This document shows positions 3,790-38,940 of a stretch of 64,000 nucleotides of DNA, piece by piece (the stretch's first letter is position 1; each line of letters opens with the position of its first letter). The position numbers and the translations under genes are program-made. The stretch covers positions 1 through 64,000 of the IMG/VR virus record IMGVR_UViG_3300020050_015145. The stretch is one strand, 5' to 3'. Source of the DNA: a virus. Its lineage: Duplodnaviria; Caudoviricetes. Under the pieces are notes generated by a model. The model saw only the letters and a list, made by a program, of their open reading frames with translations, was not told the origin of the DNA and searched no databases.

Positions 3790-4800
3790 TTACTGTCTAA
3801 AACTCGGCATGGCAGGAAACAAAATCAGATTGGTACTTCCAATCATACGGTCTTCAAAGCGCGAACCGTAACGCTTTCCCAATTCCGAAACCTTGTTATT
3901 GGTGGTGAAATGGGTGTAATTGCCCGGCAGTCGCTCCCAGCGCTGATACAGTACATTTTCCACCGTTTCGCAGCTTGAGGCAAAATGGGAGCCCACATCC
4001 TCCGCGTGAATATCGTCCACAAACAGCCCTATTTTCTCCTGCCCGAAATGCGTACTCAACACGCCTTTTTGAAAAGAATAATACCTGGATAGCCCCATGT
4101 AACCCTCACTTTCAAAGATGCCCGGCAGTTTTTTGGCGTTCAGATAAGCAAAGGAAAGTCGCGGATTGTGTAAAAATGCCCGCAACGTATCGGTTTTTCC
4201 AACGCCCGTGGGACCAAACAGCCCCAAACCTTTTTCCAAACTCGGCGTGCCGGTAATCAAAACAGGGCGTCCGTCAATGCGCTGGTTGCAATACCAAAGA
4301 AAATCTTTATCCTGCGCAAAGTAGCAGCACAGCATCTCCAGCACAAACCGCGTATCGTTGGTTAATCGGTAACTTTTGCCCGGGTTCTTTTCCGCCACGA
4401 TTGCATTCAGACGAGGAATGACCAATTGCCAATATTGTTCGGCCGTCAAGTTCTGCGCCGCTTCGGGTTGGGCGATGGCTTGCAGATAGGTATTGATTTT
4501 GACCGCACTCTGCTTTCTTCTTTTTTCCCGAACCGCATCGATTTGCAGTTTATTAAAAAACTTTTGAGCCCTTGCCTGAAAGTTTTCAATCTCTTCTTCG
4601 GTCAATTCTTCCGGCACCCCACTTTCTTTCCGAGTAGCTTTTTCATTTTCGAGCAAAAGGTTGTAGTATCGGTAGGCTTTAGCCTCCAATTCCTCAATTT
4701 CCGCATCAGTCAGCTCATCGGTAGTCATTTTCGTCTCTTCCCGGAAGTGTAGCAGTGGAATTGCCCGTTTTGCTGTTTCGATTAGTTGGGTAGTTGCCAT
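3790..4800 (-). CDS. DnaC/IstB-like P-loop ATPase (helicase loader)
   Basis: Walker A GPTGVGKT, Walker B LFVDD, HFTTN and YGSRFEDR motifs; follows the replication initiator. Confidence 0.8.
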   Translation of the reverse strand: MATTQLIETAKRAIPLLHFREETKMTTDELTDAEIEELEAKAYRYYNLLLENEKATRKESGVPEELTEEEIENFQARAQKFFNKLQIDAVREKRRKQSAVKINTYLQAIAQPEAAQNLTAEQYWQLVIPRLNAIVAEKNPGKSYRLTNDTRFVLEMLCCYFAQDKDFLWYCNQRIDGRPVLITGTPSLEKGLGLFGPTGVGKTDTLRAFLHNPRLSFAYLNAKKLPGIFESEGYMGLSRYYSFQKGVLSTHFGQEKIGLFVDDIHAEDVGSHFASSCETVENVLYQRWERLPGNYTHFTTNNKVSELGKRYGSRFEDRMIGSTNLILFPAMPSFRQ

Positions 4801-5602
4801 TTTTCGGGGCTGGATCTTTTGGTTTATTAATCGCGTTGTAAAGGATGTGACTTTTTAATTTTTGATAATCCGGCTCAATCGGTCTGCCCACTCCGTGGAA
4901 ATACATAGCGTAGTCCAAAACCATGTCCACAAACTCTTCCTTGGTCCGAATCTTCAATTTGTATTTTGCCAAATCGACAAACAGTTGATCCTTCAATAAA
5001 ACTTCATGCAAATTCGTATAGGTGATTTTTGAATCTTCAAAGGGAGGGGTGGCCGGAACGGGGAGGGATTCTTTTTGCATTTCTTCTACCGCCGCTTCCA
5101 ACTCCTTTCTTTCTTCAATTACCCAAGACGGTAAATCATCATTTTCGACGGATGGTGACAGACTTTTTTTTTCCTTTCTGTCTTCATTGTTTACTTGTCT
5201 TAAAGGTTTTAATTGTTTATTATATATGGGCGGTACATCGTGCGGTGCAGTATGCGGTGCAGATGCGGTACGCTTTGCGGTACGCTTTGCGGTACATTTT
5301 TGCACCGCACCAAGTAACACACTATGCACCGCAAAGCGTGCTTTTGCATATTCTCCACGACCTTCAATCACCAATAAAATACCATTATCATCCAGCCATC
5401 GACGGGCTTTTAGGTACATGCGTTTATCCAGCCTTGTCTTATAAACAATGCGGTCAAATTCTACTTCTGTCTCGCGCCAATTGTTCCGATTGATGGAATC
5501 CAACAATGCAAAAAACAGCGTCGCATATTCGGCTTTATAGCCTTCCATTTCGGGAACCTCCTCCCAAAACCAATTGACTATATCAATATAGTTTGGGCTC
5601 AT
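4715..5602 (-). CDS. Phage replication initiator (lambda O-like, N-terminal HTH)
   Basis: N-terminal LFFALLDSINRNNW, internal iterons, adjacent DnaC-like gene. Confidence 0.75.
   Translation of the reverse strand: MSPNYIDIVNWFWEEVPEMEGYKAEYATLFFALLDSINRNNWRETEVEFDRIVYKTRLDKRMYLKARRWLDDNGILLVIEGRGEYAKARFAVHSVLLGAVQKCTAKRTAKRTASAPHTAPHDVPPIYNKQLKPLRQVNNEDRKEKKSLSPSVENDDLPSWVIEERKELEAAVEEMQKESLPVPATPPFEDSKITYTNLHEVLLKDQLFVDLAKYKLKIRTKEEFVDMVLDYAMYFHGVGRPIEPDYQKLKSHILYNAINKPKDPAPKNGNYPTNRNSKTGNSTATLPGRDENDYR
5181..5333. repeat. Iteron cluster and AT-rich tract: putative replication origin
   Basis: TGCGGT(A/G)C units at about 11-12 bp spacing (5241, 5253, 5264, 5276, 5288), inverted TGCACCGCA at 5301 and 5325, AT-rich 5181-5226. 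Confidence 0.75.
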
Positions 5603-5865
5603 AGGCTATCTTCGGTTTGGGTTGTGGGAGGAAGAAGATAGCTTTCATGAAGGTATAGCGGGCAGTTGGTCTGTAACTTGCCGGCCGGCAACCTTTTGTA
5701 TGTTTTCAAACAACGCCTGTTTTCAATATCGTTGTCAAAATGCGCACAGGTAATGCACGAACGACTTTTGGGATTCTTAAAACACTTGGGCTCATGCCGA
5801 ACCATCGAAGACTTGGTAAGTACTTTGGGACAATGGTCGCATTTATATCTTTCAACTTTTGTCAT
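5599..5865 (-). CDS. Small Cys/His-rich (zinc finger-like) protein
   Basis: CDHC...H...C and CITC...C motifs. Confidence 0.65.
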   Translation of the reverse strand: MTKVERYKCDHCPKVLTKSSMVRHEPKCFKNPKSRSCITCAHFDNDIENRRCLKTYKRLPAGKLQTNCPLYLHESYLLPPTTQTEDSL

Positions 5866-5876
5866 CTCATAGTTAT

Positions 5877-5990
5877 AAAAAAAGCCCGCAACAGGTAGGA
5901 GCTGTGTACGGGCAAAAAGGCAACTAAGCCGATTCCAATGCGTGTCTGAGTCTCCTACCTCTCAAACACTCATTGTATGCTACAAATATA
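5877..5990 (-). promoter_or_regulatory. Promoter (TATATTTG, 5983-5990) and leader with terminator/antiterminator potential
   Basis: GCCCG/CGGGC stem followed by T7 on the minus strand; AGGTAGGAG/CTCCTACCT complementarity. Confidence 0.55.
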
Positions 5991-6021
5991 TAAATATTAA
6001 TAATACAAATTAACATTATTA

Positions 6022-6603
6022 TTAATATTTATTTTTCAACAAAGCATCATCGTACATTTTCAGCACAGACTTTGCCTTTTGCTCAATACTCGCACCCACC
6101 ACAGGAAGGTAAAACACCTCTTTTGTCCAAATTTCGCCCGTGTCCCGCGCCACATACACCATCAAACAACTTTTAAAGCGTCCGTGGTGCATATAGGCCT
6201 GCACCTGATTAAAATGCCGCTTAGGTAGTTTATCGCCGTTATTGCGGATAAAATCCAGTTGAGCCTGCACACAGGATTTGATTTCGTAGATTTGGTTTCC
6301 TTTGTTGGTCATGCCGTCGATGTGACCTTTCACGCGTTGGTCGTAGTCGGCATAAATTTCAAAGCTCGTATTGGGCATGGCCAGTCCGATACCTTCCAAA
6401 CGTTTGCGAATATCTTCTTCAACCACATACCCCAAAGCAAACTTTAACACATCGGCATCAGAAGCTTCTTTGGAGCCGTTTATCATGTCCTGCACGAGTT
6501 CTTCTTCGCTTCGGCTCAATTGGCTCAGTCCTAAGTAATGCCGCTTTTCATGCCCGCCGTTAACGCGGGTGTAATCGGTTAGTTTTTGGATTAGTTGCTT
6601 CAT
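6022..6603 (-). CDS. PD-(D/E)XK nuclease (Cas4/YqaJ-like)
   Basis: GHIDG, YEIKS and NQVQAYM motifs. Confidence 0.75.
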   Translation of the reverse strand: MKQLIQKLTDYTRVNGGHEKRHYLGLSQLSRSEEELVQDMINGSKEASDADVLKFALGYVVEEDIRKRLEGIGLAMPNTSFEIYADYDQRVKGHIDGMTNKGNQIYEIKSCVQAQLDFIRNNGDKLPKRHFNQVQAYMHHGRFKSCLMVYVARDTGEIWTKEVFYLPVVGASIEQKAKSVLKMYDDALLKNKY

Positions 6604-6630
6604 AGAGGTTTGATTAGTTAATTGTAAAAG

Positions 6631-7629
6631 TTAGTTGCCTACTGAAAAAAATTGTTTTTTTGAGCCTACTTTCGCAATGTCGTATTTTGAGGGTATCAAG
6701 TGCGCCTCAAAACCTTTCCAATTAAATTTCGTCTCTCCCCTTAAATGTTTTTTTACTATGGTTTGCCTGTATTCGTCGGAATACTCACTAACTTTTATAC
6801 TTCTATAATGCTTTGAAACCCAGTGTAACATAGCTTTACGCCTTCCCGCCTCCGAAACGTCTCTAATTTCAAATATTTCTTTACAACTTTCTGGAGCAAT
6901 AGGAATACGAAAACCGATAGAGTTGGCCTCTTTAAAGTAAACAAACCATTGGTAATAGTTAGCAAATTGCATTTTGATTTGCTGAGACATTACTGGTATA
7001 TAATCGTCATTTAAATCAATTCCCCCGAAAACCCTTTTAGGTGTATTTAAAGAAGGTAAAATACAGAATTTATCGAATTCGCCTTTTTTACCAGGCAATA
7101 CCCAAAAATAAAGCCTGACATTAAACCAAGTTTCATTTTCTAGAAGCTTTGAATAAGAAAGTTCTAAAACCTTTTTTCCGACATGAGGCGTTCCCTTTAG
7201 TTCAGTGGGCTCTAAAACTCTGCTTTTTAATAGTAAATTACCCCTTTCGCTTGTTTGTGAAATATTTTCGGAAATTTGAAAGTATTTACCTCCGTTAAGG
7301 TTGTAATCAATATCGGAAAGATTAACAACTTCATCTTTGATAGGGGTGTAATTATATCCACTATCGTATTGATTTACCTCATGCCCTTCGCCCAATAAAA
7401 TAGCTCCGTCAAAGGTCTTTATTGAGCGAAAGCCAAAATCAAGTTTAACAGGAAGTTTTTCTGAAACTGCTAAATAAGTTTCGCTTTTAAAGCCCAAATA
7501 CATAGTAGCCCAATCTACCGCATCTTCAAAAGAATTGAATTTAGGGGTAGGTATGGGCTTTTGATTCAAAGACTTTGCATTTTCGAGTATATCAGTATCT
7601 GATACTTTCGCACTTTTATTTGTGTTCAT
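6631..7629 (-). CDS. Hypothetical AT-rich protein
   Basis: Long ORF; likely start MNTNK at 7629, coupled to the upstream stop. Confidence 0.75.
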   Translation of the reverse strand: MNTNKSAKVSDTDILENAKSLNQKPIPTPKFNSFEDAVDWATMYLGFKSETYLAVSEKLPVKLDFGFRSIKTFDGAILLGEGHEVNQYDSGYNYTPIKDEVVNLSDIDYNLNGGKYFQISENISQTSERGNLLLKSRVLEPTELKGTPHVGKKVLELSYSKLLENETWFNVRLYFWVLPGKKGEFDKFCILPSLNTPKRVFGGIDLNDDYIPVMSQQIKMQFANYYQWFVYFKEANSIGFRIPIAPESCKEIFEIRDVSEAGRRKAMLHWVSKHYRSIKVSEYSDEYRQTIVKKHLRGETKFNWKGFEAHLIPSKYDIAKVGSKKQFFSVGN

Positions 7630-7849
7630 CGCATCTGGTTGTTTTAAAGTTAGTATTAAACAATTCATCAGGAAATTGCCGATTTGATTTTTCAAATTCA
7701 TCCAAATACTGTTGCGTCTCCTTGACTTCCTGCTTGTATTCATCAGTATCGCGAATGGCCGAATCCAATTTGCGGAGCAACTGTTTTGCTTCGGAATAAC
7801 TTAGATTTATGATGCGCTCACGTACCTTGACAATGATTATTGTGTTCAT
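7616..7849 (-). CDS. Hypothetical protein
   Basis: 77 aa ORF in operon. Confidence 0.6.
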   Translation of the reverse strand: MNTIIIVKVRERIINLSYSEAKQLLRKLDSAIRDTDEYKQEVKETQQYLDEFEKSNRQFPDELFNTNFKTTRCDEHK

Positions 7850-7850
7850 C

Positions 7851-8417
7851 TTAAAAATCCTCCTCCAATTCCTTGCCTACATCCTCTCCCAGTCTTCGTT
7901 TCATTTCCTGATTTTCCCGCTGAAGATTTCTCAAAACGGCACGGTAGGGATAGTCTGAAATATTGAAATCGAAATACTGCCAATTGTGCATCAACTCCTC
8001 GCCCTGACTGTTACGAAGCTTCACAATCGCGCTTTCAAGCAGTTGCACCAACCCACGCAAACGGGCGCTTTTTTCTGCGTGAGTTTCCGCCATCCCTACC
8101 GATTCAACCAACATCACCACCGAACGGAAATACACCATACAATCCTCTATCAGTGCTTTTTTGGTAGAAATCGCTTTGGCTGTTTCCTGTTGGAAATGGG
8201 AAATCAGGTTTCTGATTTTGGTGTGATATTCTCCCGAAAAGCTGTATTGAATATCGTCCTCGTACTTCTTTATTACTTTGTCGATTTTCAGTACCGCGCT
8301 TGACAATAGTTCATCAGCTTTCAGCGTGGCGTATTCTTCCATGTATTGCGCCAAATCGTCAATAGAAACCACATGGTCTTGAATATTTTTACTTTCTAAA
8401 AATTCGTTAACGTTCAT
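7851..8417 (-). CDS. Hypothetical phage protein
   Basis: 188 aa ORF in operon. Confidence 0.7.
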   Translation of the reverse strand: MNVNEFLESKNIQDHVVSIDDLAQYMEEYATLKADELLSSAVLKIDKVIKKYEDDIQYSFSGEYHTKIRNLISHFQQETAKAISTKKALIEDCMVYFRSVVMLVESVGMAETHAEKSARLRGLVQLLESAIVKLRNSQGEELMHNWQYFDFNISDYPYRAVLRNLQRENQEMKRRLGEDVGKELEEDF

Positions 8418-8516
8418 CGTTTTGTTGGTTGAGATGTGTAAAATTTTGTTGAAGCAAACGTTTCTGGAAACCCATGTTGACTAATCGCATTTGATACATC
8501 CGCAAATGAGCCCTCA

Positions 8517-8708
8517 TCAATCACCATTGTTCATTGTTAGTAGGGCATATTTCCCCCTATACTGCCCAGTAAATGGCAAACGAAACTGCCGAAGATCAGA
8601 CAGTGAAGAAACTAACGATAAATTTATCGTATCAATTAGAATTTCATTTTTTAAGTCATCCGCACAAATGTCCTCTGACTTTTTAAAGTAATGAAGTTTG
8701 TAAAACAT
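8517..8708 (-). CDS. Hypothetical protein
   Basis: 63 aa ORF in operon. Confidence 0.55.
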   Translation of the reverse strand: MFYKLHYFKKSEDICADDLKNEILIDTINLSLVSSLSDLRQFRLPFTGQYRGKYALLTMNNGD

Positions 8709-8741
8709 GATTTTTTAATATTTGTAAGATTCAATGCTTCT

Positions 8742-8966
8742 TTAAAAAGGGCAATATTCATTTTTGATTTTGATTAAATGCGGCCTTAAAAACTTTAAAG
8801 AGTAAAACTTTCCAGCAATACAATAGCCTATACTCCCCTTTTGATATACTTTCTTTATTTCGCGTCCAGTCTTACAATTAAAGCACTTTTTACAAGTTGT
8901 GAATTTGTAATAAGGCGCAAAATCTATCTCGTATTTAAGGGTGTAAGTAATTGATATTGTGGTCAT
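8742..8966 (-). CDS. Hypothetical phage protein
   Basis: Likely start MTTISITY at 8966; the upstream in-frame extension is the residual attC-like half site. Confidence 0.65.
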   Translation of the reverse strand: MTTISITYTLKYEIDFAPYYKFTTCKKCFNCKTGREIKKVYQKGSIGYCIAGKFYSLKFLRPHLIKIKNEYCPF

Positions 8967-9026
8967 TTCCCCATATTTAAGTTTCGTCAATCCACTCGTT
9001 ATGTGCAATTTTATTTTTCATTTTTT

Positions 9027-9977
9027 TTACCCTCCCAAAAAATGATTTAATGATTTTCTATTCGGGTTATATTCGTAATCTTCCCAACTACACGAATTGA
9101 AGATTATCCTATTGTTTACATATCTTGTGTATGATTTTTGATACTTGTCTGACTTATTGTAAGGCATCACAAAAGGTTTGCATCCTAATTCCCTTAAAAA
9201 TTCAACTCTGTAATAGTCTTGTTCTGGAGTTGTATCATAGCCAATTAAGACAAAGAATTGCATATTTTGACAAGGTATTCCCCATTTGTTACATCGTTCA
9301 ATTCCTCTTATTATTACTCTTTCATCTTTGAACTGATCCCAAGCAAAAGTTAAATACTTCTTATTGAATTTAGAGTTTGAGTAATTAACTTTTGCTAATA
9401 ATTCGGCTTGTCTATCTGAAAGTATGCGAATATTTAAACCTTGAACAAAACACACTTTTAATTTTAACTCTGCAATCCTTTCTAAATTAGACTGCCAATT
9501 TGTGCCACCAAAAAAATCATTATCTAACAACATCAAATTTTTACCGCCTGATGGGTTGGTAAGTAGCTCGTCAATAGTGTTATAATTCTTTGGCTTTCCC
9601 TCCTTTGTTGGCACACAACAGAATGAACAGCTAAAACGACATCCTTTCATTGAAAATCCATAATGAAAAGGAGTGTTTGGGTATATTTCCCAATCCATTG
9701 TAGCAGCTTCAATTTCAGCAGGTAGTTTATTATAGAAATCTATTCCAGTTCCGCCAATCACCATATTATCGGGTATTTGTGGCATTTCTGAAAACTTAAA
9801 TATTTTACTTGCATAAATTTTATCGTATTGATTTGCAAATAAAATTCCCTCATACCAACTTACATCATCGCCAATAGATTTGTGATACCCACTAATCTTC
9901 ATTAGTGCTATGTTTGGAAATTGAACGCCTTGATATTCCGTTCCATCAACTTGATATATTCCTATTCGTGCCATCAA
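9027..9977 (-). CDS. Radical SAM protein (cassette 1 cargo)
   Basis: CxxxCxxC (CRFSCSFC), FPNIALMKIS N-terminus, LLDNDF, FVLIGY. Confidence 0.85.
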   Translation of the reverse strand: MMARIGIYQVDGTEYQGVQFPNIALMKISGYHKSIGDDVSWYEGILFANQYDKIYASKIFKFSEMPQIPDNMVIGGTGIDFYNKLPAEIEAATMDWEIYPNTPFHYGFSMKGCRFSCSFCCVPTKEGKPKNYNTIDELLTNPSGGKNLMLLDNDFFGGTNWQSNLERIAELKLKVCFVQGLNIRILSDRQAELLAKVNYSNSKFNKKYLTFAWDQFKDERVIIRGIERCNKWGIPCQNMQFFVLIGYDTTPEQDYYRVEFLRELGCKPFVMPYNKSDKYQKSYTRYVNNRIIFNSCSWEDYEYNPNRKSLNHFLGG

Positions 9978-10027
9978 TGATTTAATGATTTAATTGCCCA
10001 CGCACAAAAAATGAAAAAGAAAACAGA

Positions 10028-10160
10028 CACATAACAGCACATTGCCAAAAGTGGCGATGTAGTGCTAAAATCAAGTGTAGTGCTTCTAATTTTCATTTGT
10101 GCTATGTTCAAAATTTGTACTTCTAATTCGCCACCTTCGGCAATCTGCAAAACGTTATGT
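10028..10160 (+). repeat. attC-like hairpin element A
   Basis: CACATAAC-A-21 bp arm ... arm-AAAAC-GTTATGT; 18/21 matches between arms 10037-10057 and 10128-10148. Confidence 0.75.
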
Positions 10161-10505
10161 TTAATTGCTCGTTCCTCGCAACTCCGCTTCGCTAAACATA
10201 ACACAGTATTTGCGATAATAATTTAAAACCTCTGAGCGTAACCATTTCTCAGCAAAGTTTTTTAATTCATCTACTGTGTCGCCAAAGCCACTATACATTA
10301 CCCTGTTTTTGTATCGTATCATTAAAGTAAGTCCACAATTATTTGGCTTTATATCATCTCTAATACTTTTACTTCCTTTATCATAAATACCATCACAATC
10401 GTAACGTATATCAAATTCATACGCTCCTACTGTGGCTTTTGCTGTGGCATAATCAAGACCAAAAAACTTTGCTTGTTCTACCCAATTATTAATTTTTGTT
10501 TCCAT
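10161..10505 (-). CDS. Hypothetical protein lying in the loop and left arm of element B
   Basis: 114 aa ORF with A/T-rich upstream context. Confidence 0.65.
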   Translation of the reverse strand: METKINNWVEQAKFFGLDYATAKATVGAYEFDIRYDCDGIYDKGSKSIRDDIKPNNCGLTLMIRYKNRVMYSGFGDTVDELKNFAEKWLRSEVLNYYRKYCVMFSEAELRGTSN

Positions 10506-10560
10506 ATTAAATTCTCGTTAAGGTTTTAAATTACTACGCAAATACTGATACCGTTAGTGG
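10194..10560 (+). repeat. attC-like hairpin element B with an approximately 290 nt loop
   Basis: AAACATAAC-A-CAGTATTTGCG..AATTTAAAACCT ... AGGTTTTAAATT..CGCAAATACTG-ATACC-GTTAGTGG. Confidence 0.7.
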
Positions 10561-10606
10561 CAACCGTAGGACACCCGACACCGAGCATCCTACGAACCAC
10601 AAAAAA

Positions 10607-10885
10607 TTAAATCCTTGTATTGCCTTCTTCAAACGCTTCGGCAGGTGAAAATGATTTGTAGCCATCTTTGTAAACTACATAATAGCCACCTACTTGTGGT
10701 TTGTGCTTATGTAAATAATCTACTTCAACTCTAAAAGGTGCATAACCTTCTTCTTCGGGAGTAATAATTGCACTTCCATCGCTTTCACGATTTTCACCTT
10801 CTCCATCTCTTACAATGGATTTAATTTTTAAAGCCCATACTTCTTTATGGCTTCTGTACTTTGGCATTTCTACTGATACACTCAT
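10607..10885 (-). CDS. Small phage protein (cassette 3 cargo), candidate anti-defence
   Basis: 92 aa; GYYVVYKDGYKSFSPAEAFEEG motif. Confidence 0.75.
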   Translation of the reverse strand: MSVSVEMPKYRSHKEVWALKIKSIVRDGEGENRESDGSAIITPEEEGYAPFRVEVDYLHKHKPQVGGYYVVYKDGYKSFSPAEAFEEGNTRI

Positions 10886-10944
10886 ATTGTTTTTTTGTGG
10901 GTTTTATAACTCCGCCCAGAAGTTTTATCGTGAGAAAACGGCAG

Positions 10945-11030
10945 CCACTAACACGGGTTTGGCAAAATGGCTTTCCGACACACAAGCCAACGCACAAAAG
11001 CCACTTCGCCAAGCCCGAAAACGTTACCCG
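10945..11030 (+). repeat. attC-like hairpin element C
   Basis: CCACTAAC-A-21 bp arm ... arm-AAAAC-GTTACCCG; 18/21 matches between arms 10954-10974 and 10997-11017. Confidence 0.75.
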
Positions 11031-11085
11031 CCACACCTTCCCACCCTCTCCCCGCAATTTTTACATTTAACCCATCGCTTGCTTG

Positions 11086-12825
11086 TCACTCTCGTTCCAA
11101 ACCCGCACTTCGGACACATACCCGCCCCAACGCCTCGGCCCATACTTTCATTTGCCTTGGTACCACACTGTTTCCGATAAATTTCTTTTGGTCGGTCTGC
11201 GTACCTTTCAAGACATAACCGGCTGGAAACCCCTGAATAAGCAAAAGCTCCTTTACCATCAGCATCCGCATATAAATATCCGCAATGCCCGCCGCCCGCA
11301 TAAACTGCTTGATTTTTACCATGGCCTCGCTGTCGGTGGAATTAATTTCCCAATAAGGCGAACCCGTGGCCAGCGTAACCATACCAATAGGCGCTTTGTC
11401 CTGACGGGCAATAATAACTGGGCTGGGCACTTCTAAGCTGTGCGTTGCGCCTCCGTGATTAGTCGTCACCAAATAATGATGGTGGTCCGTCACACGGTTG
11501 CCCGTGAGTAGAGTAGGAGCGGGTTCATCCAATGATTTCGGTAAGTTGCTGTGCTGATTGGTCATCAAATAACTGGAGCTTACCAAGCTAAACCTATCTT
11601 TGGTGGACAATGCTCCGCAGGGAACATCGGTACTGTGCGCCTCTTTTTCGGTGCCGTTGTATTTTAACAAAAACTCAGGGCTTACAATCGCGTGGCGGTT
11701 CTCAGTCGTCACCGTCAAACACGGTTCGTCCATTCCTCTCAAACGATTGTCATTGCTTCCTGAATAATACGTCATCACAAACGGTTCGGGCGTTACAAGC
11801 GACATTTTACTTTGTGTTGTAATCGTAGAGGCTGGATTGTCAATAGCCATAACCCGACAATCATCATTGCCCGAAAACTGACTGCTTAAAAACGGCTCCA
11901 CACTTGCCAACGAATGACTATCCGTCGTGGTCATGGCACCCGCAGGCACGTCCAATGCAACACACTTGCCTTCCGGATCTCCTGAATAATGTTTCTGCAA
12001 AAACTCCTTATCCCCCTTCACCACGTGCTTTATCAGGCCCGCAAAAATCCGCTTCAGCGTCTTTTCAACCAACGGTATTTTTCGGGTAAAAATAGATTCC
12101 CCTTTCTCCGAAAGGTCCAAAACCTCCCGTACCGGCATCCATTTTTTCAACTTCTCGTTATACATCGTAGAGGCTTTCGGGGTTTTTGCGTGTGTCGGCT
12201 CAGGCCATGCCACAGGCATTCCATTTTTGGAAAACATAGCATAGTACCTAAGCCTCGATGTATAAGCCCCGTAATCCGCTGCGTTCAATAGCCGATGCGA
12301 ATAACAATAGCCCAACTCCTCAATGTCCCGCGTCCAGCGCACGTACTCCCGCCCTTTTTGTCGGCTAATAGGCTTCCCTTTGTCGTCCAGCGGCCCCCAC
12401 GACATAAATTCCCGTACGTTTTCAACCGTAAAATAATCAGGGCTCAACGCCTTAATATACATCGGCATAAACTCCGCCAAACTGCGGCTGTCTCCGTCCC
12501 GAGGCTTACCACCCTTGGCGTTACTGAAGTTGGTACATTCCAAACTCGCATGAAGCACCACCAACACTCTACGCCCTATACGTTGCAATTTCTCCCGTTC
12601 TACCTTTGCCAATTCGGCTACTTTCTTCACTACGGCCATATCCCGAATGTCTTCCGTAAAATGATGCGTGTCGGGATGGTTGGCCGCGTGGCTTTCAATG
12701 GCTTTGGCATCGTGATTAACCCCTGCCAGTACCCGAAATTCAACACCTGGTACAGATGCCTGTTCAAACCCTTCGGGCACGCCTCCGGCTCCACAAAATA
12801 AATCTATGATTAAAATAGTTGTCAT
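11086..12825 (-). CDS. DNA (cytosine-5) methyltransferase with a repeat-expanded variable region
   Basis: DLFCGAGG, ASLECTNFS (PC-like catalytic motif), ENV, RLR and KFIGNSV motifs. Confidence 0.9.
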   Translation of the reverse strand: MTTILIIDLFCGAGGVPEGFEQASVPGVEFRVLAGVNHDAKAIESHAANHPDTHHFTEDIRDMAVVKKVAELAKVEREKLQRIGRRVLVVLHASLECTNFSNAKGGKPRDGDSRSLAEFMPMYIKALSPDYFTVENVREFMSWGPLDDKGKPISRQKGREYVRWTRDIEELGYCYSHRLLNAADYGAYTSRLRYYAMFSKNGMPVAWPEPTHAKTPKASTMYNEKLKKWMPVREVLDLSEKGESIFTRKIPLVEKTLKRIFAGLIKHVVKGDKEFLQKHYSGDPEGKCVALDVPAGAMTTTDSHSLASVEPFLSSQFSGNDDCRVMAIDNPASTITTQSKMSLVTPEPFVMTYYSGSNDNRLRGMDEPCLTVTTENRHAIVSPEFLLKYNGTEKEAHSTDVPCGALSTKDRFSLVSSSYLMTNQHSNLPKSLDEPAPTLLTGNRVTDHHHYLVTTNHGGATHSLEVPSPVIIARQDKAPIGMVTLATGSPYWEINSTDSEAMVKIKQFMRAAGIADIYMRMLMVKELLLIQGFPAGYVLKGTQTDQKKFIGNSVVPRQMKVWAEALGRVCVRSAGLERE

Positions 12826-12837
12826 CTTTATTTTTGG

Positions 12838-13092
12838 TTACACAATAAAACTTACCAAACGAAATTCAATTTTGTGCTGACATTCCCCTTTTTCGTTTGG
12901 CTCAAAACGGGAGACGGGCTGGTGAGAGTAATGCACGGGAATCAGATTGGGAGGGGCTTCGCCGGTTATTCTAAGTTCTAACCTTTCAATACTTTTGGTT
13001 GACTCCGGAACATTTACAAACCGCATACACCTCTCTTTGTGCGGGCAAGACCGGTTGTTGCACCGGCTCACGTCATCAGGCAGTGCTTCCAT
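12838..13092 (-). CDS. Small Cys-containing hypothetical protein
   Basis: RCNNRSCPHKERCMRF; likely start at 13092. Confidence 0.55.
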   Translation of the reverse strand: MEALPDDVSRCNNRSCPHKERCMRFVNVPESTKSIERLELRITGEAPPNLIPVHYSHQPVSRFEPNEKGECQHKIEFRLVSFIV

Positions 13093-13462
13093 CCTTAAAA
13101 AAGTCAGTTGGCTTATTTCCCGCCATGGCAAAACCTATGAATCGCCCCAGTTCAATAGAAAGTCCGTGATGCTTACAAAAGATGCCGCATAAATTCCGCA
13201 TTTTCCGACTGCTGCTCACCTGTTCTTTTTGGGCCTGAAACAATCGGTCGTTTTCGGCCAACGTGCGTTTTAGCTCAATTTGCCCGTGTTTAACTTCCGC
13301 TTTCAGTATTTCAATTTCGCGACACTTTCTTTTTTCAAATTCTTTGGTTTGCTCGGTAAGCATATCCAGCCTTTCTGACAGTGTAGCACAGTAGCGAAGC
13401 AATAAATTGACCTTGTTGGCATCCGGCAACTGGTCGAATGTGATGGGAGGAAGTAGATTCAT
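13076..13462 (-). CDS. Hypothetical coiled-coil protein
   Basis: 128 aa; ATGA overlap with the upstream gene. Confidence 0.7.
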   Translation of the reverse strand: MNLLPPITFDQLPDANKVNLLLRYCATLSERLDMLTEQTKEFEKRKCREIEILKAEVKHGQIELKRTLAENDRLFQAQKEQVSSSRKMRNLCGIFCKHHGLSIELGRFIGFAMAGNKPTDFFKDGSTA

Positions 13463-14016
13463 AATGCTTTTTTGAGTTTAGCGTGTAATGCCTCTAACCA
13501 TAGGCATTCTCTGTTTTTCTTGGTCACAATAAAACCCCAAGGCTCACTGATAGACTTGAATTCTTCTTCAACAAACTCTTTGTCGTAACTATAATCGTCA
13601 ATCAGGTAGTAATCAAGGCGTTTAATAAACGAATAGAAGTTATCAACAAAAAAGTGTTCTGATGGGCATTCCGCGCATTCGTTTTGAAAGCTATTCAGCT
13701 TTTCCCGCATATCTGCCTGAAAATCCAAATTCTTATACCATGGCAAAATAGCCTCTCTGATATGTTTGCGAATGGCCGAAAATGTTCTTTTTACATCTAC
13801 TTCAGTACAGCTTGCCGAACCAAGTAATTTATTTGCAAAATAATCTACATTGATTTGGCAAAGAAAGCTTCGTAATGGCATACCCATTGCACCCCAATAC
13901 ATTGAATAGTTATGTCCGTAATCACTGATTGTGATTTTACCCTGACCATTCCCCATATCTTCAAGGAAAATATCAGCACTCTCAATTTTGATTCGGTCGG
14001 GAGCGATTGCGTTCAT
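13459..14016 (-). CDS. Hypothetical phage protein
   Basis: 185 aa ORF in operon. Confidence 0.75.
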   Translation of the reverse strand: MNAIAPDRIKIESADIFLEDMGNGQGKITISDYGHNYSMYWGAMGMPLRSFLCQINVDYFANKLLGSASCTEVDVKRTFSAIRKHIREAILPWYKNLDFQADMREKLNSFQNECAECPSEHFFVDNFYSFIKRLDYYLIDDYSYDKEFVEEEFKSISEPWGFIVTKKNRECLWLEALHAKLKKAL

Positions 14017-14083
14017 TTTGGTTAGATTAGAAATTGAAAAATAACCCCGCCATTACAGCGGGGCGGTAGGGTAAAGGGTAGCA

Positions 14084-14704
14084 CTATTTCTTTTTACGTT
14101 TCGGCTTCAGTTCTCCCCCGTCAAAATCAGCTTCATCGCCGAAAATATCATCCAGCTCCGATGGCACTCCCGCATCTTCAGCCGTCCTTTCCAACTCATT
14201 GGCTGCTTTCTCATCCTCCAGCGTCAACTGCAATTCTTCGGCACTCATCGGACGGGTATCCACCACAATGTTGGTGAGAGGATTGTAATACTCAAAAATC
14301 TTCTTTTCCATGTTTTTGCGACGCGGGAAAAACTCTCTGATTTCTTTTTGGGACATTTTGCGCGTTTCAATCAGGTCAGAGTTTTCGGGATGATAGTATT
14401 CAAATTCCAGTGTATTGCCGTTGATTTTTTTGATGGCTTCCACCTGTTCAAATTTATACCCATCGTTCAGGTAGTTGCCTGTAATGTTCATTTCTGCCTC
14501 TTTGGCTTCAATGCGACTTTTCCAAGTGGACATGGCGGACTTTTTGTCCAGTTCCATCTGGTTTTTGTCCTTGCGTTGGGTGTTCAGCTCCGCACCTAAG
14601 TTGATCAACTCTTTATCATCGAATACGTGTTTGTACTCCACGCGTTCGGTTTTTTCGGGAAACGTAAACTGAACAACTTCTTCCTGTATGTCTTGATTTT
14701 GCAT
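14084..14704 (-). CDS. Hypothetical phage protein
   Basis: 206 aa ORF with good initiation context. Confidence 0.75.
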   Translation of the reverse strand: MQNQDIQEEVVQFTFPEKTERVEYKHVFDDKELINLGAELNTQRKDKNQMELDKKSAMSTWKSRIEAKEAEMNITGNYLNDGYKFEQVEAIKKINGNTLEFEYYHPENSDLIETRKMSQKEIREFFPRRKNMEKKIFEYYNPLTNIVVDTRPMSAEELQLTLEDEKAANELERTAEDAGVPSELDDIFGDEADFDGGELKPKRKKK

Positions 14705-14738
14705 GATTGTAATTAGTAAAAAGGTTTGATTGAATTGA

Positions 14739-15041
14739 TTAAATAATTTCCCAGTCTTGGGCTAAAAGATTGGAGACAGAAAGAAAACTTTGAGCGGAAC
14801 TTGGCCCTTTATCGGGATGAATCCGCTGTGCATACGGAAGTTTAATTCCTTCTTCGTCGGTACCGAACTCAAAATGTTTCGGATGAATGCCGTGAATGGT
14901 TTCGACCGCATCTGCACCAATGGGATAACTGCCCTTTTTAAGTTTCAGATGCACACCCTCAGCCCAGTGCGGGCGACGAATTCCCTGCTCATCTTTGAAG
15001 GCTTCCAGCGCTTGGCTGAATGTTAAGTTTTGCTTTGGCAT
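14739..15041 (-). CDS. DUF2829 / Tad2-like protein
   Basis: N-terminal FSQALEAFK...IRRPHW and C-terminal SNLLAQDWEII match the DUF2829 pattern. Confidence 0.65.
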   Translation of the reverse strand: MPKQNLTFSQALEAFKDEQGIRRPHWAEGVHLKLKKGSYPIGADAVETIHGIHPKHFEFGTDEEGIKLPYAQRIHPDKGPSSAQSFLSVSNLLAQDWEII

Positions 15042-15055
15042 AAAATAATTTATTT

Positions 15056-15427
15056 TTAAGGTTCAACTACATCAGTTATTTCAATCACATATTTTTCAAG
15101 CGATTCACTTGCAACCCGCACCTGCCTGAATTCGGGAATGCCTATAATTCGCATTTTGTCATCTTTGATGATGTGGGCGTTTTTAACAGCGTCCATCGGA
15201 ATCTTCATCGTGCAGGCCAGATTATCAAAGTCTTCCATAATCTTGATTCCGTAGCGGGTAATAATCACCTTAACTTTTCCGAGGTGTCTGTTTCCTTTGG
15301 CCTGACTCAAAAACAACCACGTCCACGTTTCTTTTAATCGGGCGCGGTCACGATAATGCAGGTTTATCAAACCTTCTTTGCCGTTTAGCCCATGAACGCG
15401 CCCGGGGATGGTTAGGATAGTGGTCAT
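15056..15427 (-). CDS. RusA-like Holliday junction resolvase
   Basis: DFDNLACTMKIPMDAV...IIKDDK motif. Confidence 0.7.
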   Translation of the reverse strand: MTTILTIPGRVHGLNGKEGLINLHYRDRARLKETWTWLFLSQAKGNRHLGKVKVIITRYGIKIMEDFDNLACTMKIPMDAVKNAHIIKDDKMRIIGIPEFRQVRVASESLEKYVIEITDVVEP

Positions 15428-15460
15428 TTAGATAGGGTCAATTGTTTGGTTTTGGCGTTT

Positions 15461-15799
15461 TTATAGCTTCGTTCTCATTTTACCCATATCCACCTCCGGT
15501 ATTCCTCCCGCCCGATTCACCCTTCTTGAAATCACGTTTTTATCCGAGGGCAGTCTCAAAAAAGAAACCTTCGTATCGGCCAAATAGAAATCGTAACGCG
15601 AATGAATCGTTGGAGGGATAGGCTCAAGAACGGGCCTTCCGTCCTTGGTAAAGTCACCCGTGGCAAGTCCTGCCGTGTAAGCTGTTGTGGTGGCATTGGG
15701 GCGTTCGTTGACATAAACGCGTACCGTATTGCCTTTTCGTATCACTTCCGACAATGGCGGAAGTACGGATTTATTGGTAGGGATAGTGTGATTTTGCAT
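15461..15799 (-). CDS. Hypothetical protein
   Basis: 112 aa ORF in operon. Confidence 0.6.
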   Translation of the reverse strand: MQNHTIPTNKSVLPPLSEVIRKGNTVRVYVNERPNATTTAYTAGLATGDFTKDGRPVLEPIPPTIHSRYDFYLADTKVSFLRLPSDKNVISRRVNRAGGIPEVDMGKMRTKL

Positions 15800-15835
15800 G
15801 TTTAGGTTTTTGATAAGGACATTTATGTCCCTGTG

Positions 15836-17011
15836 TTAATTTTCAAGGTCAATGGGTGCAATTTCCTTTTTGGTCCATTCGGGAAGCGTTAATTCAATGA
15901 TACCGCGATGCCCGAATTCGGCACGGGCGTCAAAGCCGGGGAATAACTTGGAGTCCAGGCATTTCTTTACATCGACAATAGCCGAACGGTATCGGTATTT
16001 CCCCACGTGCAAATCATCGGCGGAGTACATAAATACCGCAGGTAAAAACGGCTCAACGGTTTGCAACATCACACAGATAACCGCATTGAAATGCCGCCCC
16101 GTGATTTGAGAAGCAACCTCCAAGTACATTCCTTCGGCCATGTGGTACTGGAATTTGGCCGCATCGTAGGCAAATTTCTCCACCGTTTCGGCGCTGGTGG
16201 TCTTGAAGGAAATAATAGCGTTGCATCCGATATTTTCTTCCAGTTGCAGTCCATCGGGGCGAATCTTAACGGGTAGTCCCGTTTCCGGATCGTGACCGTA
16301 AAAGCTTACTTCGTTCGCCGAGCCTTTCATTATTGCAGGAAGAATCCCTCCGCCGTAGGTGTAATAGTGTCTGCGCACCAACTCGATCTTTCGCTTCGAT
16401 ACTTCGTCAACGGTGATTTTCCCGCATCGCTTCACCAGCTCCTCGCGGTACCGCTTCAAGCCGTCCTGTTTTGCGACGTTCAGCCCCGAGCGCTTCAAGG
16501 CATCTTTGGCGTTTTTCAAAAGGTGTTTTTTACCTTTTTTCTTCATTACGTCTTTCAGGGTCTTTTCCCAAAACTCAATGGATTTCTTCACACCTTCCGT
16601 GGTGGCCATACTGTAATTGGGCTCCACGATCAAGGCATCAAACAAATCGGGCTCCAAAAACGCCATGTGGCAAAACGTGCCGAATTCAAAGGCTTTTTTA
16701 GAAGCCACAGGGATTTTCTCGTGCAGGTAACACCAGTAGTGTAACGGCGTTTTCAATATCTGCTTCAAAGCGCTGGCACTGTTGGCCGGAGCGGTCAGGT
16801 ACTTGGTCATTTCATCCTGAATCACCGTGCCGTAAAGTGACAGCTGAGGAAGCAACTCTTTAACTTCCAGCGTTTTTTTGCGGTGCAGGATGTGACTGAC
16901 CACGTCTTGAATAGTGGCGTAGTCGTCGGGATTGTAAGAGAGCGGGTTGATTTCCCGCTCTTCTACTGTCGCATTTCCCAATGCGCTCAACATTTCATCA
17001 ACGCTAAGCAC
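15836..17011 (-). CDS. RecE/exonuclease VIII-like PD-(D/E)XK nuclease (DUF3799-type)
   Basis: SASALKQILKTPLHY, FGTFCHMAFLEP, KIRPDG, FKTT and YHMAEGMY motifs. Confidence 0.85.
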   Translation of the reverse strand: MLSVDEMLSALGNATVEEREINPLSYNPDDYATIQDVVSHILHRKKTLEVKELLPQLSLYGTVIQDEMTKYLTAPANSASALKQILKTPLHYWCYLHEKIPVASKKAFEFGTFCHMAFLEPDLFDALIVEPNYSMATTEGVKKSIEFWEKTLKDVMKKKGKKHLLKNAKDALKRSGLNVAKQDGLKRYREELVKRCGKITVDEVSKRKIELVRRHYYTYGGGILPAIMKGSANEVSFYGHDPETGLPVKIRPDGLQLEENIGCNAIISFKTTSAETVEKFAYDAAKFQYHMAEGMYLEVASQITGRHFNAVICVMLQTVEPFLPAVFMYSADDLHVGKYRYRSAIVDVKKCLDSKLFPGFDARAEFGHRGIIELTLPEWTKKEIAPIDLEN

Positions 17012-19186: not shown

Positions 19187-20038
19187 ATGCCTTACTTAAA
19201 TGAAAGTGAAATGCTTAGAAAAATCAAATTGCGCCGCTTCCTGCGTGAATTCGCGGGAGGAAACCAGAAGAAATTCGCGGACCTTACCGGTCTTCAACAA
19301 TCGCAGGTAAGCCAACTCGTGGGCGACCGCAGGGAGGTGACCGATAAAATGTGGATTAAAATACTTGGAAGCCTGAATGTACCCGACACAGCTCTGCCCG
19401 AAGATTACGATATGCTTCAGCAGGAGTTGGAGGTGAGCAAAAAAAGCGTTCACCAGGGAAGGCAACTGGAAGAGTACATGCGCAAACACAACATAAAGAA
19501 CATTGACGTTGCCAAAATACTGGGTGTAAGCCCCCCGATGGTAAGCATATACAAATCTTCCGAGCAGTTTCGCCCCGATGTAGCTGAAAAAATTAACAAA
19601 TTCCTGACTGTCAACGAAGACCCGGTGCTGTACGGAGCGTCTTCCGGTACACCCGACTCGCTGCCCTTGATTTCCGACAGCGTTCGCAACCTCACAGACT
19701 TATCCAAATGCCCGCGTTATGAAATTGTCCAAAAAACCGAGTATGACCTCAAAGACGCGGTTGTTATCAAGGTAGATACTGATTTTATGGAGCCCGTTTT
19801 TAAAAAAGACTCCGAATTGCTGGCCATTGCCGTGCCGTCTGCCAAATACAAATACCATACAGGTTTGACCGCCATCCACTACGCCGACATGGTAGCCATT
19901 GGTGAAGTAATGTCCAATGATTTGCTGGACAAAGGATTTATTACGCTTCAGCGGGGAAAAGGTGCCGTACTTCGCGTTTTGGGAGAGGATATTCAGCATT
20001 TGTGGCATATTGCACTGGGCCTTAACGTGAAGTTTTAA
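19187..20038 (+). CDS. CI-like repressor with two XRE HTH domains and an S24-like C-terminal domain
   Basis: NQKKFADLTGLQQSQVSQL and KNIDVAKILGVSPPMVS HTHs; VIKVDTDFMEP motif. Confidence 0.85.
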   Translation: MPYLNESEMLRKIKLRRFLREFAGGNQKKFADLTGLQQSQVSQLVGDRREVTDKMWIKILGSLNVPDTALPEDYDMLQQELEVSKKSVHQGRQLEEYMRKHNIKNIDVAKILGVSPPMVSIYKSSEQFRPDVAEKINKFLTVNEDPVLYGASSGTPDSLPLISDSVRNLTDLSKCPRYEIVQKTEYDLKDAVVIKVDTDFMEPVFKKDSELLAIAVPSAKYKYHTGLTAIHYADMVAIGEVMSNDLLDKGFITLQRGKGAVLRVLGEDIQHLWHIALGLNVKF

Positions 20039-21270
20039 TGGTTACCTTTCGTGTTGAACTTGCTTCGGCCCCGAATCGGGACGGGCAGTTTCCGGTACGT
20101 TTGCGCATTACCGCCGACCGCCGACACAAACGTATCAGCTTGGGCTTCGCCATTGCAAAAAAAGACCTGAACCCCAAAGCTACCTTGGATAAGGCGAATT
20201 GGATACGCGCCGGCCATCCGCAGCAATTGGCCTATAACAATCGAATTCGGGAAAAATGTGAGGCAATTATCAATGCGGTTTCTGAGTTATCCAAAGAGAC
20301 CGAACCTACCCTTGAAGCAGTGGAGCACGCATTGCTCAATGGCAACGACCAGTCTTTCATTGCTTATTACCGAAAGCAACTGGAGTATGTGGGCATAAAG
20401 AATTCGCTGGAAACGGCGGAAAACTACGGCGTACCGCTGAATAAAATCATCAAGCAGTTGCAGGAGAAAGGGAAAAGCGATTTAACCTTTCGGGAACTTA
20501 CCCTGGCGTGGCTGAAAAGCTTTGAGACTTACATGATTCAAATCCCCAATTCAAAAAACACGGTAAGCAAACAATTGGGGTTTGTCAAGACCATCGTCGG
20601 TGCGGCAATAAAAGACAAGCTGCTGAGTCCTCTTAACAACCCGTTTCAGGATTATAAATTTTCTTTTGAAGAAACGGAGCGCGAAAAACTAAGCCCGGAA
20701 GAAGTTAAGCAATTGGAGGATATGCCGCTGGACCCAACCTACCGCGTTTGTCACGCCCGCGACATTTTTCTTTTTATGTATTACACCCACGGGATGCGCA
20801 TTGGTGATGCGTTGTTTTTAAGGGTCAGCAACATTCACAAAGAGCCCGAGGCGTGGCGTTGCAGATACCAAATGCACAAAACCGACTCGCGGCGTAATGT
20901 GAAGCTCACGGAAAAAGCCCGTTTGATCGTGGAGAAATACGCCGAAAACAAAGGCCCGAATGACTTTTTATTTCCTTTTGTGGAGCTGGGGAAAAACTAC
21001 AACGACGAAAGAACTTACAAAGATACAAAATCAGCCAAGACATCCATCGTAAACAAGGGACTTGGCAAAATAAAGGAAAGGCTGGGCTGGGAGAAGAATT
21101 TGACCTGCCACATTGCCCGTCATACCTTTGCCGATGCGGCCCGGGTAAAAGGTGCCAATACCTATACCATTTCCAAAGCGCTGGGTCACGCCCGATTGTC
21201 CACCACCGAAAAATACCTGAAATCCTTTGACCAAAATGCAGTGGATGAAATTAACGATATATTTGAGTAG
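20038..21270 (+). CDS. int: Tyrosine integrase (arm-binding, SAM-like and catalytic domains)
   Basis: GMRIGD, HIARHTFA and LGHARLSTTEKY catalytic motifs. Confidence 0.95.
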   Translation: MVTFRVELASAPNRDGQFPVRLRITADRRHKRISLGFAIAKKDLNPKATLDKANWIRAGHPQQLAYNNRIREKCEAIINAVSELSKETEPTLEAVEHALLNGNDQSFIAYYRKQLEYVGIKNSLETAENYGVPLNKIIKQLQEKGKSDLTFRELTLAWLKSFETYMIQIPNSKNTVSKQLGFVKTIVGAAIKDKLLSPLNNPFQDYKFSFEETEREKLSPEEVKQLEDMPLDPTYRVCHARDIFLFMYYTHGMRIGDALFLRVSNIHKEPEAWRCRYQMHKTDSRRNVKLTEKARLIVEKYAENKGPNDFLFPFVELGKNYNDERTYKDTKSAKTSIVNKGLGKIKERLGWEKNLTCHIARHTFADAARVKGANTYTISKALGHARLSTTEKYLKSFDQNAVDEINDIFE

Positions 21271-38700: not shown

Positions 38701-38940
38701 TTACTTAATTATGTGGGTGTAGGTTCCGGGCAACTCCCGCTTTAAAACCACAATGGCCACGTTTTCCGCCGCTACCGCCTCTCCCCATTTTTCGCCGTTA
38801 ATTTCCACCGTAACGGTTTTGCCCGTTTCGGCTTTGACCACAAACGTATTTTTGTTGGCAATGTAGTCCAGTTGGGTTTTTACCTTTTTTGGTTTTTCCA
38901 CTGCCACTACCGCCTTTTCTTCTTCCTTTGGAGTCTCCAT
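38701..38940 (-). CDS. Hypothetical protein
   Basis: 79 aa ORF. Confidence 0.65.
   Translation of the reverse strand: METPKEEEKAVVAVEKPKKVKTQLDYIANKNTFVVKAETGKTVTVEINGEKWGEAVAAENVAIVVLKRELPGTYTHIIK

Follow-up and report, generated by a model that had tools for sequence, protein, structure and literature searches.

A probable array of integron-type mobile cassettes in the accessory region of a phage

The region 8998-11026 of the virus record IMGVR_UViG_3300020050_015145 (Duplodnaviria; Caudoviricetes) contains three small minus-strand genes encoding 316, 114, and 92 amino acids (aa), each associated with an imperfect palindrome that has the appearance of an integron attC site. The analysis presented here indicates that this region is very probably an array of three integron-type mobile cassettes in a phage accessory region, most likely served in trans by a Xer-like tyrosine recombinase. 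All coordinates refer to the window, that is, the whole analyzed stretch of 64,000 nucleotides (nt), which is part of a complete virus record of 72,207 bp with direct terminal repeats. Almost all genes of the phage are carried on the minus strand. The array is flanked by a backbone segment of small open reading frames (ORFs) on the left and by a C5 DNA methyltransferase gene (11086-12825) on the right.

Sites, cassettes, and cargo genes of the array

Three plus-strand sites in the region share the same build: TAAC, a single A, a stem arm, a loop, the second stem arm, a 5-nt spacer ending in C (N4C), and GTTA. The attC-like site A (10028-10161, plus strand) comprises the TAAC-containing core R'' CACATAAC at 10028-10035 (TAAC at 10032-10035), the A, arms at 10037-10062 and 10123-10148, the spacer AAAAC, and the GTTA-containing core R' GTTATGTT at 10154-10161 (GTTA at 10154-10157). 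Site B (10194-10560, plus strand) is a long attC-like site with R'' AAACATAAC at 10194-10202 (TAAC at 10199-10202), the A, a left arm at 10204-10231, a right arm at 10521-10547, the spacer ATACC, and R' GTTAGTGG at 10553-10560 (GTTA at 10553-10556); its stem consists of 27 bp with one bulged A at 10215. The attC-like site C (10945-11030, plus strand), the last of the array, comprises R'' CCACTAAC at 10945-10952 (TAAC at 10949-10952), the A, arms at 10954-10974 and 10997-11017, the spacer AAAAC, and R' GTTACCCG at 11023-11030 (GTTA at 11023-11026). The lengths of sites A (126 nt) and C (78 nt) are both inside the attC range of about 57-141 nt. When folded as single-stranded DNA, the bottom strand of site A reaches -24.5 kcal/mol (z-score -4.7) versus -14.8 kcal/mol (z -1.3) for the top strand, and the respective values for site C are -17.2 (z -3.6) and -14.5 (z -2.8).

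The start of every cassette is complementary to the bases preceding its own TAAC, over 8, 9, and 8 nt in cassettes 1, 2, and 3, respectively; the complementary end pairs are GTTATGTG/CACATAAC, GTTATGTTT/AAACATAAC, and GTTAGTGG/CCACTAAC. The probability of a chance match over the extra 4+5+4 cassette-specific bases is approximately 4^-13. In a scan of the 72-kb genome with a purpose-written site scanner, sites A, B, and C were the only clustered sites, accompanied by one stray match at 66935, and shuffled genomes yielded 1 to 7 scattered matches. A relaxed AAC/GTT scan of the whole genome revealed no further convincing sites, and no arrays were found in a control of about 270 kb of unrelated phage loci, for which relatives reached via the methyltransferase, with identities not above 45%, were used. 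A fourth cassette to the right, with an R'' complementary to GTTACCCGC, was not found nearby, and the match at 16723 has no hairpin.

Each cassette is composed of one minus-strand gene and one imperfect-palindrome site on the plus strand. Cassette 1 (8999-10154, plus strand) combines site A with a gene for a 316-aa radical-SAM-type phage protein (9027-9977, minus strand; phrog_9298, E 1.3e-71), for which the match to the Pfam Radical_SAM family is only marginal and the nearest Atlas clusters are viral. Cassette 2 (10155-10553, plus strand) carries a 114-aa ORF (10161-10505, minus strand) inside the loop of site B, and the left hairpin arm and R'' of this site code for the C-terminal tail of the protein; residues 8-92 are conserved in distant homologues, and the protein has no match in Pfam, PHROG, or NCBIfam. 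Cassette 3 (10554-11023, plus strand) consists of site C and a 92-aa ORF (10607-10885, minus strand; phrog_11049) that is widespread in phages, being present in more than 80 viral loci.

Some additional features were observed within the cassettes. The ends of the gene-bearing part of cassette 1 (8998-9027 and 10006-10035) form a 30-nt inverted repeat, with 70% identity overall and 94% in an 18-nt core, which prolongs the R'/R'' pairing into T-rich stretches on either side of the radical-SAM gene. A 76-aa ORF with a GTG start (9974-10204, minus strand) covers site A and extends into the end of the 114-aa gene. It has no credible family match (phrog E 0.0066) and is unlikely to be a true gene. 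A small hairpin, GTAGGA...TCCTAC (10565-10594, no strand assigned), is located where cassette 3 begins, immediately 3' of the 92-aa ORF on the coding strand. The fold of 10553-10610 has an energy of -7.9 kcal/mol (z -3.7), and the hairpin is kept in two viral loci (L039 and L041) that share cassette 3.

An earlier note on this DNA, made from the sequence alone, had described three hairpins in the same orientation, three exactly complementary end pairs, and cargo genes facing away from the TAAC arm. The hairpins were found at the positions it gave, all on the plus strand, the end pairs read as it had them, and all cargo genes lie on the strand opposite to the R''-to-R' direction, as they also do in the related array L005 and in Polaribacter phage P12002L (see below). 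The note had also proposed a residual right half of a site at 8998. This proposal was abandoned, since the region left of 8998 forms no hairpin (fold of 8960-9010, -0.2 kcal/mol, z +1.0) and retains only the C-GTTA core. The 88-aa ORF left of 8998, considered as a possible remnant of the Xer-like recombinase described below, was ruled out (hhalign probability 0.1%).

Turnover at 8998 and homology breakpoints in other phages

The array starts with the junction GTCAATCCACTC-GTTA in top-strand orientation (8986-9001, plus strand), an attI-like insertion junction with the G-TT crossover at 8998/8999. Near-identical contigs from other sequencing runs and samples were recovered via exact-protein look-ups, and samples with variants include SRR14120366 and SRR21369203; they are short, and their backbone identity is 98.6-100%. 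Among these contigs, six different sequences directly follow CAATCCACTCG-TT (GTCAATCCACTCG-TT) at 8998, starting with GTTATGTGCAA in the window and with GTTGTGTGCAA, GTTATAAGCAA, GTTATAGGCAA, GTTAGGTGCAA, and GTTATAGCCAA in the others. In all three contigs that reach far enough past 8998, the new sequence is another gene. One of them (L213) has an extra 918-bp cassette inserted exactly at 8998, ahead of the cassettes of the window, that encodes a 283-aa protein with a PAPS-reductase domain and has a site of its own (R'' GCACCCAAC, 17-bp arms, and the spacer CGTGC, followed by G-TTATGTGC); after it, cassettes 1 and 2 and the start of cassette 3 follow at 100% identity, until the contig ends. 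In another contig (L221), the cassette starts with GTTATAGCC, and GGCTATAAC-A plus a stem are found 748 nt further on.

The presence of six sequences after 8998 in near-identical backbones suggests that new cassettes are inserted at this position, at the array's upstream end, in the role of attI. Judging from these sequences, 8998 acts in the manner of attI, and its turnover within the same lineage is recent. Cassette gain or loss at G-TT had been set beforehand as a test of the cassette interpretation, and both near-identical and related phages indeed differ by cassette-sized pieces ending there. Several independent metagenome contigs of the phage end at 9000-9009 or at 10899-11022, which are the two borders of the array. 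These ends fit assembly-graph branching caused by within-sample array variation; hairpins could also break assemblies. No recombinase gene adjoins the hot spot at 8998.

Cassette borders also coincide with the limits of homology to more distant phages. For this comparison, the cargo proteins were used to retrieve loci, and these were matched by blastn to the 4000-16000 segment of the window. Cassette 1 was found as a unit in three otherwise unrelated viral contigs (L003, L004, and L005) that match the window only at 8994/8997-10158, with 86-89% identity, and at either end the homology stops exactly at GTTA(T). Other hairpins of the same build are present in the neighboring DNA of L004 and L005, and in L005 cassette 1 is located inside an array that adjoins a Xer-like recombinase gene. 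Cassette 2 is shared with a single locus (L032) that matches only 10154-10556, at 93% identity, with flanks that differ past the GTTA at either end. L039 and L041 have the left boundary of cassette 3 at 10553 (...CCGTTAGTGG) in common, with different hairpin arms before it.

The site family and its linked Xer-like recombinase

Arrays of 3 to 6 sites were identified in ten loci, including L004 and L005, and the complementarity of cassette ends was assessed for 27 consecutive site pairs from 11 arrays by comparing the 5 bases after GTTA with the 5 bases before the next TAAC. All five bases matched in 15 of these pairs and at least four in 19, whereas random pairing of sites gives at least four matches in 8% of cases. 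The chain complementarity, together with the clustered-only result of the genome scan and the array-free control loci, led us to reject a chance origin of the sites.

The consensus of the family is nGCnn-TAAC-A...N4C-GTTA-TnnGCAA, where TAAC-A and C-GTTA are each present in 37 of the 41 sites. In an alignment of twenty sites of about 126 nt, the only conserved letters are TAACA and CGTTA. The stems are maintained by covariation: 12 of 12 stem pairs have double (compensatory) changes, and 82.6% of the cells are paired, compared with 51% in shuffles and 37-46% with slid partners. As far as the aligned sequences tell, the family is conserved in structure rather than in sequence. Of 43 sites, 36 are more stable as the bottom strand (Wilcoxon p 1e-6), an asymmetry between the strands that is explained by G-U/G-T wobbles.

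Stem-loops between small genes of phages may have another origin. In T4-type phages, promoter-stem-loop (PeSL) cassettes carry conserved sequences that recombine by homology. Similarly, the hairpins described here could be regulatory or RNA-level elements, such as terminators or processing sites, with the genes being shuffled by homologous recombination; the location of hairpins between genes and the better folding of the coding strand agree with this scenario. However, neighboring hairpins share only TAACA and CGTTA, which is too little for homologous exchange, and neither the chain complementarity and the breakpoints fixed at GTT nor the constant link to a tyrosine recombinase gene (described below) would be expected. 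We therefore consider this explanation hardly credible, although the hairpins may have a second, regulatory role besides recombination.

The array in L005 ends with GTTACCTGC; a gene encoding a 273-aa tyrosine recombinase has its start codon about 50 nt away. Archaeal XerA and XerC-like structures are the best PDB matches of this protein. Its scores reach neither the cut-off of the XerA model nor that of the IntI model (TIGR02249, 142 bits against a cut-off of 265), and the alignment with VchIntIA shows 18 residues in place of the 61 of IntI, hence the IntI-specific insertion is absent. The family of this recombinase was collected with an alignment query, as a single-protein query returned only itself; 24 family members all have the catalytic residues R, K, H, R, H, and Y.

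The arrays occupy a defined position relative to the recombinase gene. In 19 viral loci containing a family member, 33 sites were detected upstream of the gene, 31 of them on the expected strand, and only 3 sites in 127 kb of downstream sequence. Of 13 loci inspected, 11 have a GTTA or GTTG about 50 nt before the recombinase start codon, often after (T)ATATAGTA, and its extension is complementary to the first R'' wherever this R'' is in view. Three to five paralogues of the family (171-259 bits) were found in each of two bacterial genomes, Mesonia aquimarina and a Bacteroidales metagenome-assembled genome; just one of these paralogues (L237) has scanner sites beside it, and the others may have different functions, such as in invertible regions.

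The sole recombinase in the 72-kb genome of the window phage is an arm-type phage integrase of 410 aa (20038-21270, plus strand) with the Arm-DNA-bind_5, Phage_int_SAM_5, and Phage_integrase domains. Its gene adjoins a CI-like repressor gene, which identifies the phage as temperate. The integrase scores 44.5 bits against the IntI model TIGR02249 (cut-off 265) and shares only 26% identity with the L005 recombinase; it belongs neither to the integron integrases nor to the Xer-like family. This agrees with the earlier note, which had reported no integron integrase in the window. The domain set of the integrase is typical for Bacteroidota elements, and the host of the phage is probably a member of the Bacteroidota. 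A blastn search of the array region against 50,697 deposited phage records and a search for an exact 30-mer of the phage backbone in genome contigs both returned no match. Apart from the array, 604 bp at 6542-7145, covering the end of a Cas4-like exonuclease gene and the 3' part of a 370-aa ORF, are cleanly missing from three near-identical relatives (L214, L218, and L219); thus, polymorphism extends to the backbone left of the array.

The sites might be real recombination sites moved by an enzyme other than the linked family, namely the 410-aa integrase or the XerC/XerD recombinases of the host. A precedent for the latter is CTX phage: XerC and XerD integrate the whole phage at dif via a folded single-stranded hairpin. 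The turnover at 8998 is recent even though the genome has no dedicated enzyme, the recombinases linked to arrays are Xer relatives, and the 410-aa integrase is the only recombinase present, all of which would fit this explanation. On the other hand, arrays or single cassettes were also found in phage records without any tyrosine recombinase (G002 and G005), which speaks for action in trans and means that a phage integrase is not needed. Furthermore, the sites are hairpins of 60-130 nt rather than 28-bp dif-like sites, and the tight link of the arrays to one recombinase family would be left unexplained if host Xer proteins acted on them. We regard this alternative as unlikely. The earlier note had invoked a tyrosine recombinase of the host or of the phage itself; given the arrays in recombinase-free records, the phage's own arm-type integrase is an unlikely candidate, and a Xer-like enzyme supplied in trans by the host is retained as an option.

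In the model that we favor, the cassettes would be cut and joined at G-TT, the first bases of each cassette being the missing half of its own site, and new cassettes would enter at the left end of the array, with 8998 in the role of attI. The most likely enzyme would be a Xer/XerA-like tyrosine recombinase of about 273 aa with the full RKHRHY set and without the IntI-specific insertion, acting in trans from the host or from a co-resident phage. By analogy with IntI, its substrate would be the better-folding bottom strand in the form of a single-stranded hairpin, and circular intermediates are presumed.

Several observations weigh against this model. Site B, at 358 nt with a gene in its loop, falls outside the normal size range of attC sites. 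The site scanner demands a stem, and therefore the pairing of helix 1 is partly guaranteed by construction, helix 2 being outside the search criterion. The better-folding strand is also the mRNA strand, and the asymmetry could reflect RNA structure instead of a single-stranded DNA substrate. The complete 72-kb genome lacks Xer-like family members as well as serine recombinases and HUH transposases; thus, the enzyme for this phage is one that we infer rather than see. The junction at 8998 is unlike the (T)ATATAGTA-GTTA motif found beside the recombinase genes. Finally, the match of L041 to cassette 3 (94% identity) extends as far as GCCACTAACA (TAACA), after which L041 continues with another hairpin that has GCTA in place of GTTA as its far core (L041:4789-5028 versus 10945-11030). 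This points to hairpin replacement or an exchange at the R'' side, for which a G-TT crossover alone is no explanation.

Cultured phages and comparison with known systems

Similar arrays are present in cultured phages. The Polaribacter phages Freya_1 to Freya_10, with genomes of 43,978-48,920 bp, encode a 34%-identical recombinase annotated as 'integrase'. Compared with Freya_1 (MT732463), Freya_10 has a 4.9-kb array of small ORFs inserted at GGGGTG-TT, 47 nt upstream of the recombinase gene. Freya_9 and Freya_10 (MT732471 and MT732472) differ by one 304-bp cassette at G-TT beside the recombinase-proximal point, with 100% identical flanks. The first cassette of Freya_10 has its gene enclosed in the hairpin, as in site B. 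Overall, among the ten Freya isolates, representing one phage species, the run of small ORFs immediately upstream of the 'integrase' differs by 0 to 4.9 kb, and the Danklef phages have array pieces in common with them at 97% identity. The paper on the Freya phages does not mention the cassettes (PMC8776804).

In the published work nearest to these findings, clusters of attC sites without an integron integrase (CALINs) were reported in phages, including Polaribacter phage P12002L, by Qi et al. (2023, Front Microbiol; PMC9892861). In that work, the CALIN of P12002L was called by HattCI and Infernal, and IntI1 recombined one P12002L attC site into attI1; the phage attC sites were treated as stray parts of bacterial integrons, and no partner enzyme was named (PMC9892861). 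We found that in P12002L (NC_028924) the TAACA...CGTTA sites at 38035-38090 and 38879-38936 flank an opposite-strand methyltransferase gene, gp54; the site tested with IntI1 may differ from these. The region studied here likewise fits the CALIN definition of at least two attC sites in the same orientation within 4 kb and no IntI nearby, as it has three attC-like sites in 1 kb and the 72-kb genome has no IntI.

Accordingly, the array could be an ordinary CALIN, that is, a group of canonical attC sites moved by an IntI of the host, with the Xer-like recombinases adjoining such arrays by coincidence. The TAAC and GTTA cores and the G-TT crossover match attC, and P12002L, in which one attC site was recombined by IntI1 (PMC9892861), has sites of the same architecture. 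However, complete integrons are very rare in Bacteroidetes genomes: apart from In0 elements, the IntegronFinder 2.0 survey reports a single complete integron, from Salinibacter (PMC9024848). Moreover, the arrays in the examined loci begin at a fixed distance from a recombinase gene that is not IntI, with a strong bias in strand and position, and their genes are inverted relative to those of integron cassettes. An ordinary CALIN is thus, in our opinion, quite improbable, and the reading as a cassette array served in trans by a Xer-like recombinase is preferred.

These data also changed two views of the earlier note. It had regarded the sites as less attC-like; they are closer to real attC, since sites of the same type occur in P12002L, where attC-finding software called a CALIN and IntI1 recombined one site. 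Its proposal of an undescribed system stands for the enzyme and the layout, but not for attC clusters in phages as such, which were described by Qi et al. Full-text literature searches revealed no paper in which such arrays are linked to a Xer-like recombinase.

We lean towards the broader view that Bacteroidota phages run their own integron analogue, with a Xer-like enzyme that lacks the IntI insertion and with inverted, sometimes nested genes, and that phages without the recombinase dock cassettes from a shared pool in trans, during lysogeny or co-infection. Integrons are the textbook bacterial gene-capture device and are defined by IntI. The same cassette logic would operate here in phage genomes, with ongoing turnover, a simpler recombinase, and the opposite gene orientation. 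If this is true, the integron mechanism arose or spread beyond IntI, and it explains the swapping of small accessory genes among Bacteroidota phages, such as those for methyltransferases, radical-SAM proteins, and proteins with a PAPS-reductase domain. The Freya series of Polaribacter phages, differing by single cassettes, provides a tractable test system, and the turnover in a phage that has no enzyme makes mobilization in trans, between phage and host or between phages, directly testable.

Comparison of the proposed system with known ones revealed both common and distinct features. An IS200/IS605-type hairpin element was rejected, as the genome has no PF01797 match (HUH Y1 transposase) and such elements fit neither the chain complementarity of the ends nor the association with a tyrosine recombinase. 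As in CTX phage, a Xer-family tyrosine recombinase would act on a site made by folding of single-stranded DNA, but here single-gene cassettes are moved within arrays, not the whole phage at dif. PeSL cassettes are similar in that small accessory phage genes flanked by stem-loops are shuffled between phages, whereas sites A, B, and C have no more than 4-5 core bases in common, with junctions always at GTT. The phage CALINs of Qi et al. have in common with our array an attC-type cluster in a phage without an integron integrase, and the sites of P12002L are of the same architecture; the distinct features here are the population-level turnover at an attI-like point and the linked Xer-like family.

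With integrons, the system shares (i) folded imperfect-palindrome sites with ...AAC/GTT... cores and variable stems, (ii) the G-TT crossover and a cassette start that completes its own site, (iii) one gene per cassette, single-orientation arrays, and better folding of the bottom strand, and (iv) entry of cassettes at one end of the array, which in the relatives is next to the 5' end of the recombinase gene. The differences concern both the enzyme and the cassettes. The linked recombinase lacks the IntI-specific insertion of about 43 residues and scores below the IntI models. The spacers are asymmetric (1 nt versus 5 nt), and some sites, namely site B and that of the first Freya_10 cassette, enclose a whole gene. 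The cassette genes are inverted, with the hairpin 5' of the gene and transcription toward the attI-like site, so that a Pc-type promoter located there would be unable to serve them. Finally, the carrier of the cassettes is a phage, and the phage with the array described here has no recombinase gene of its own for them.

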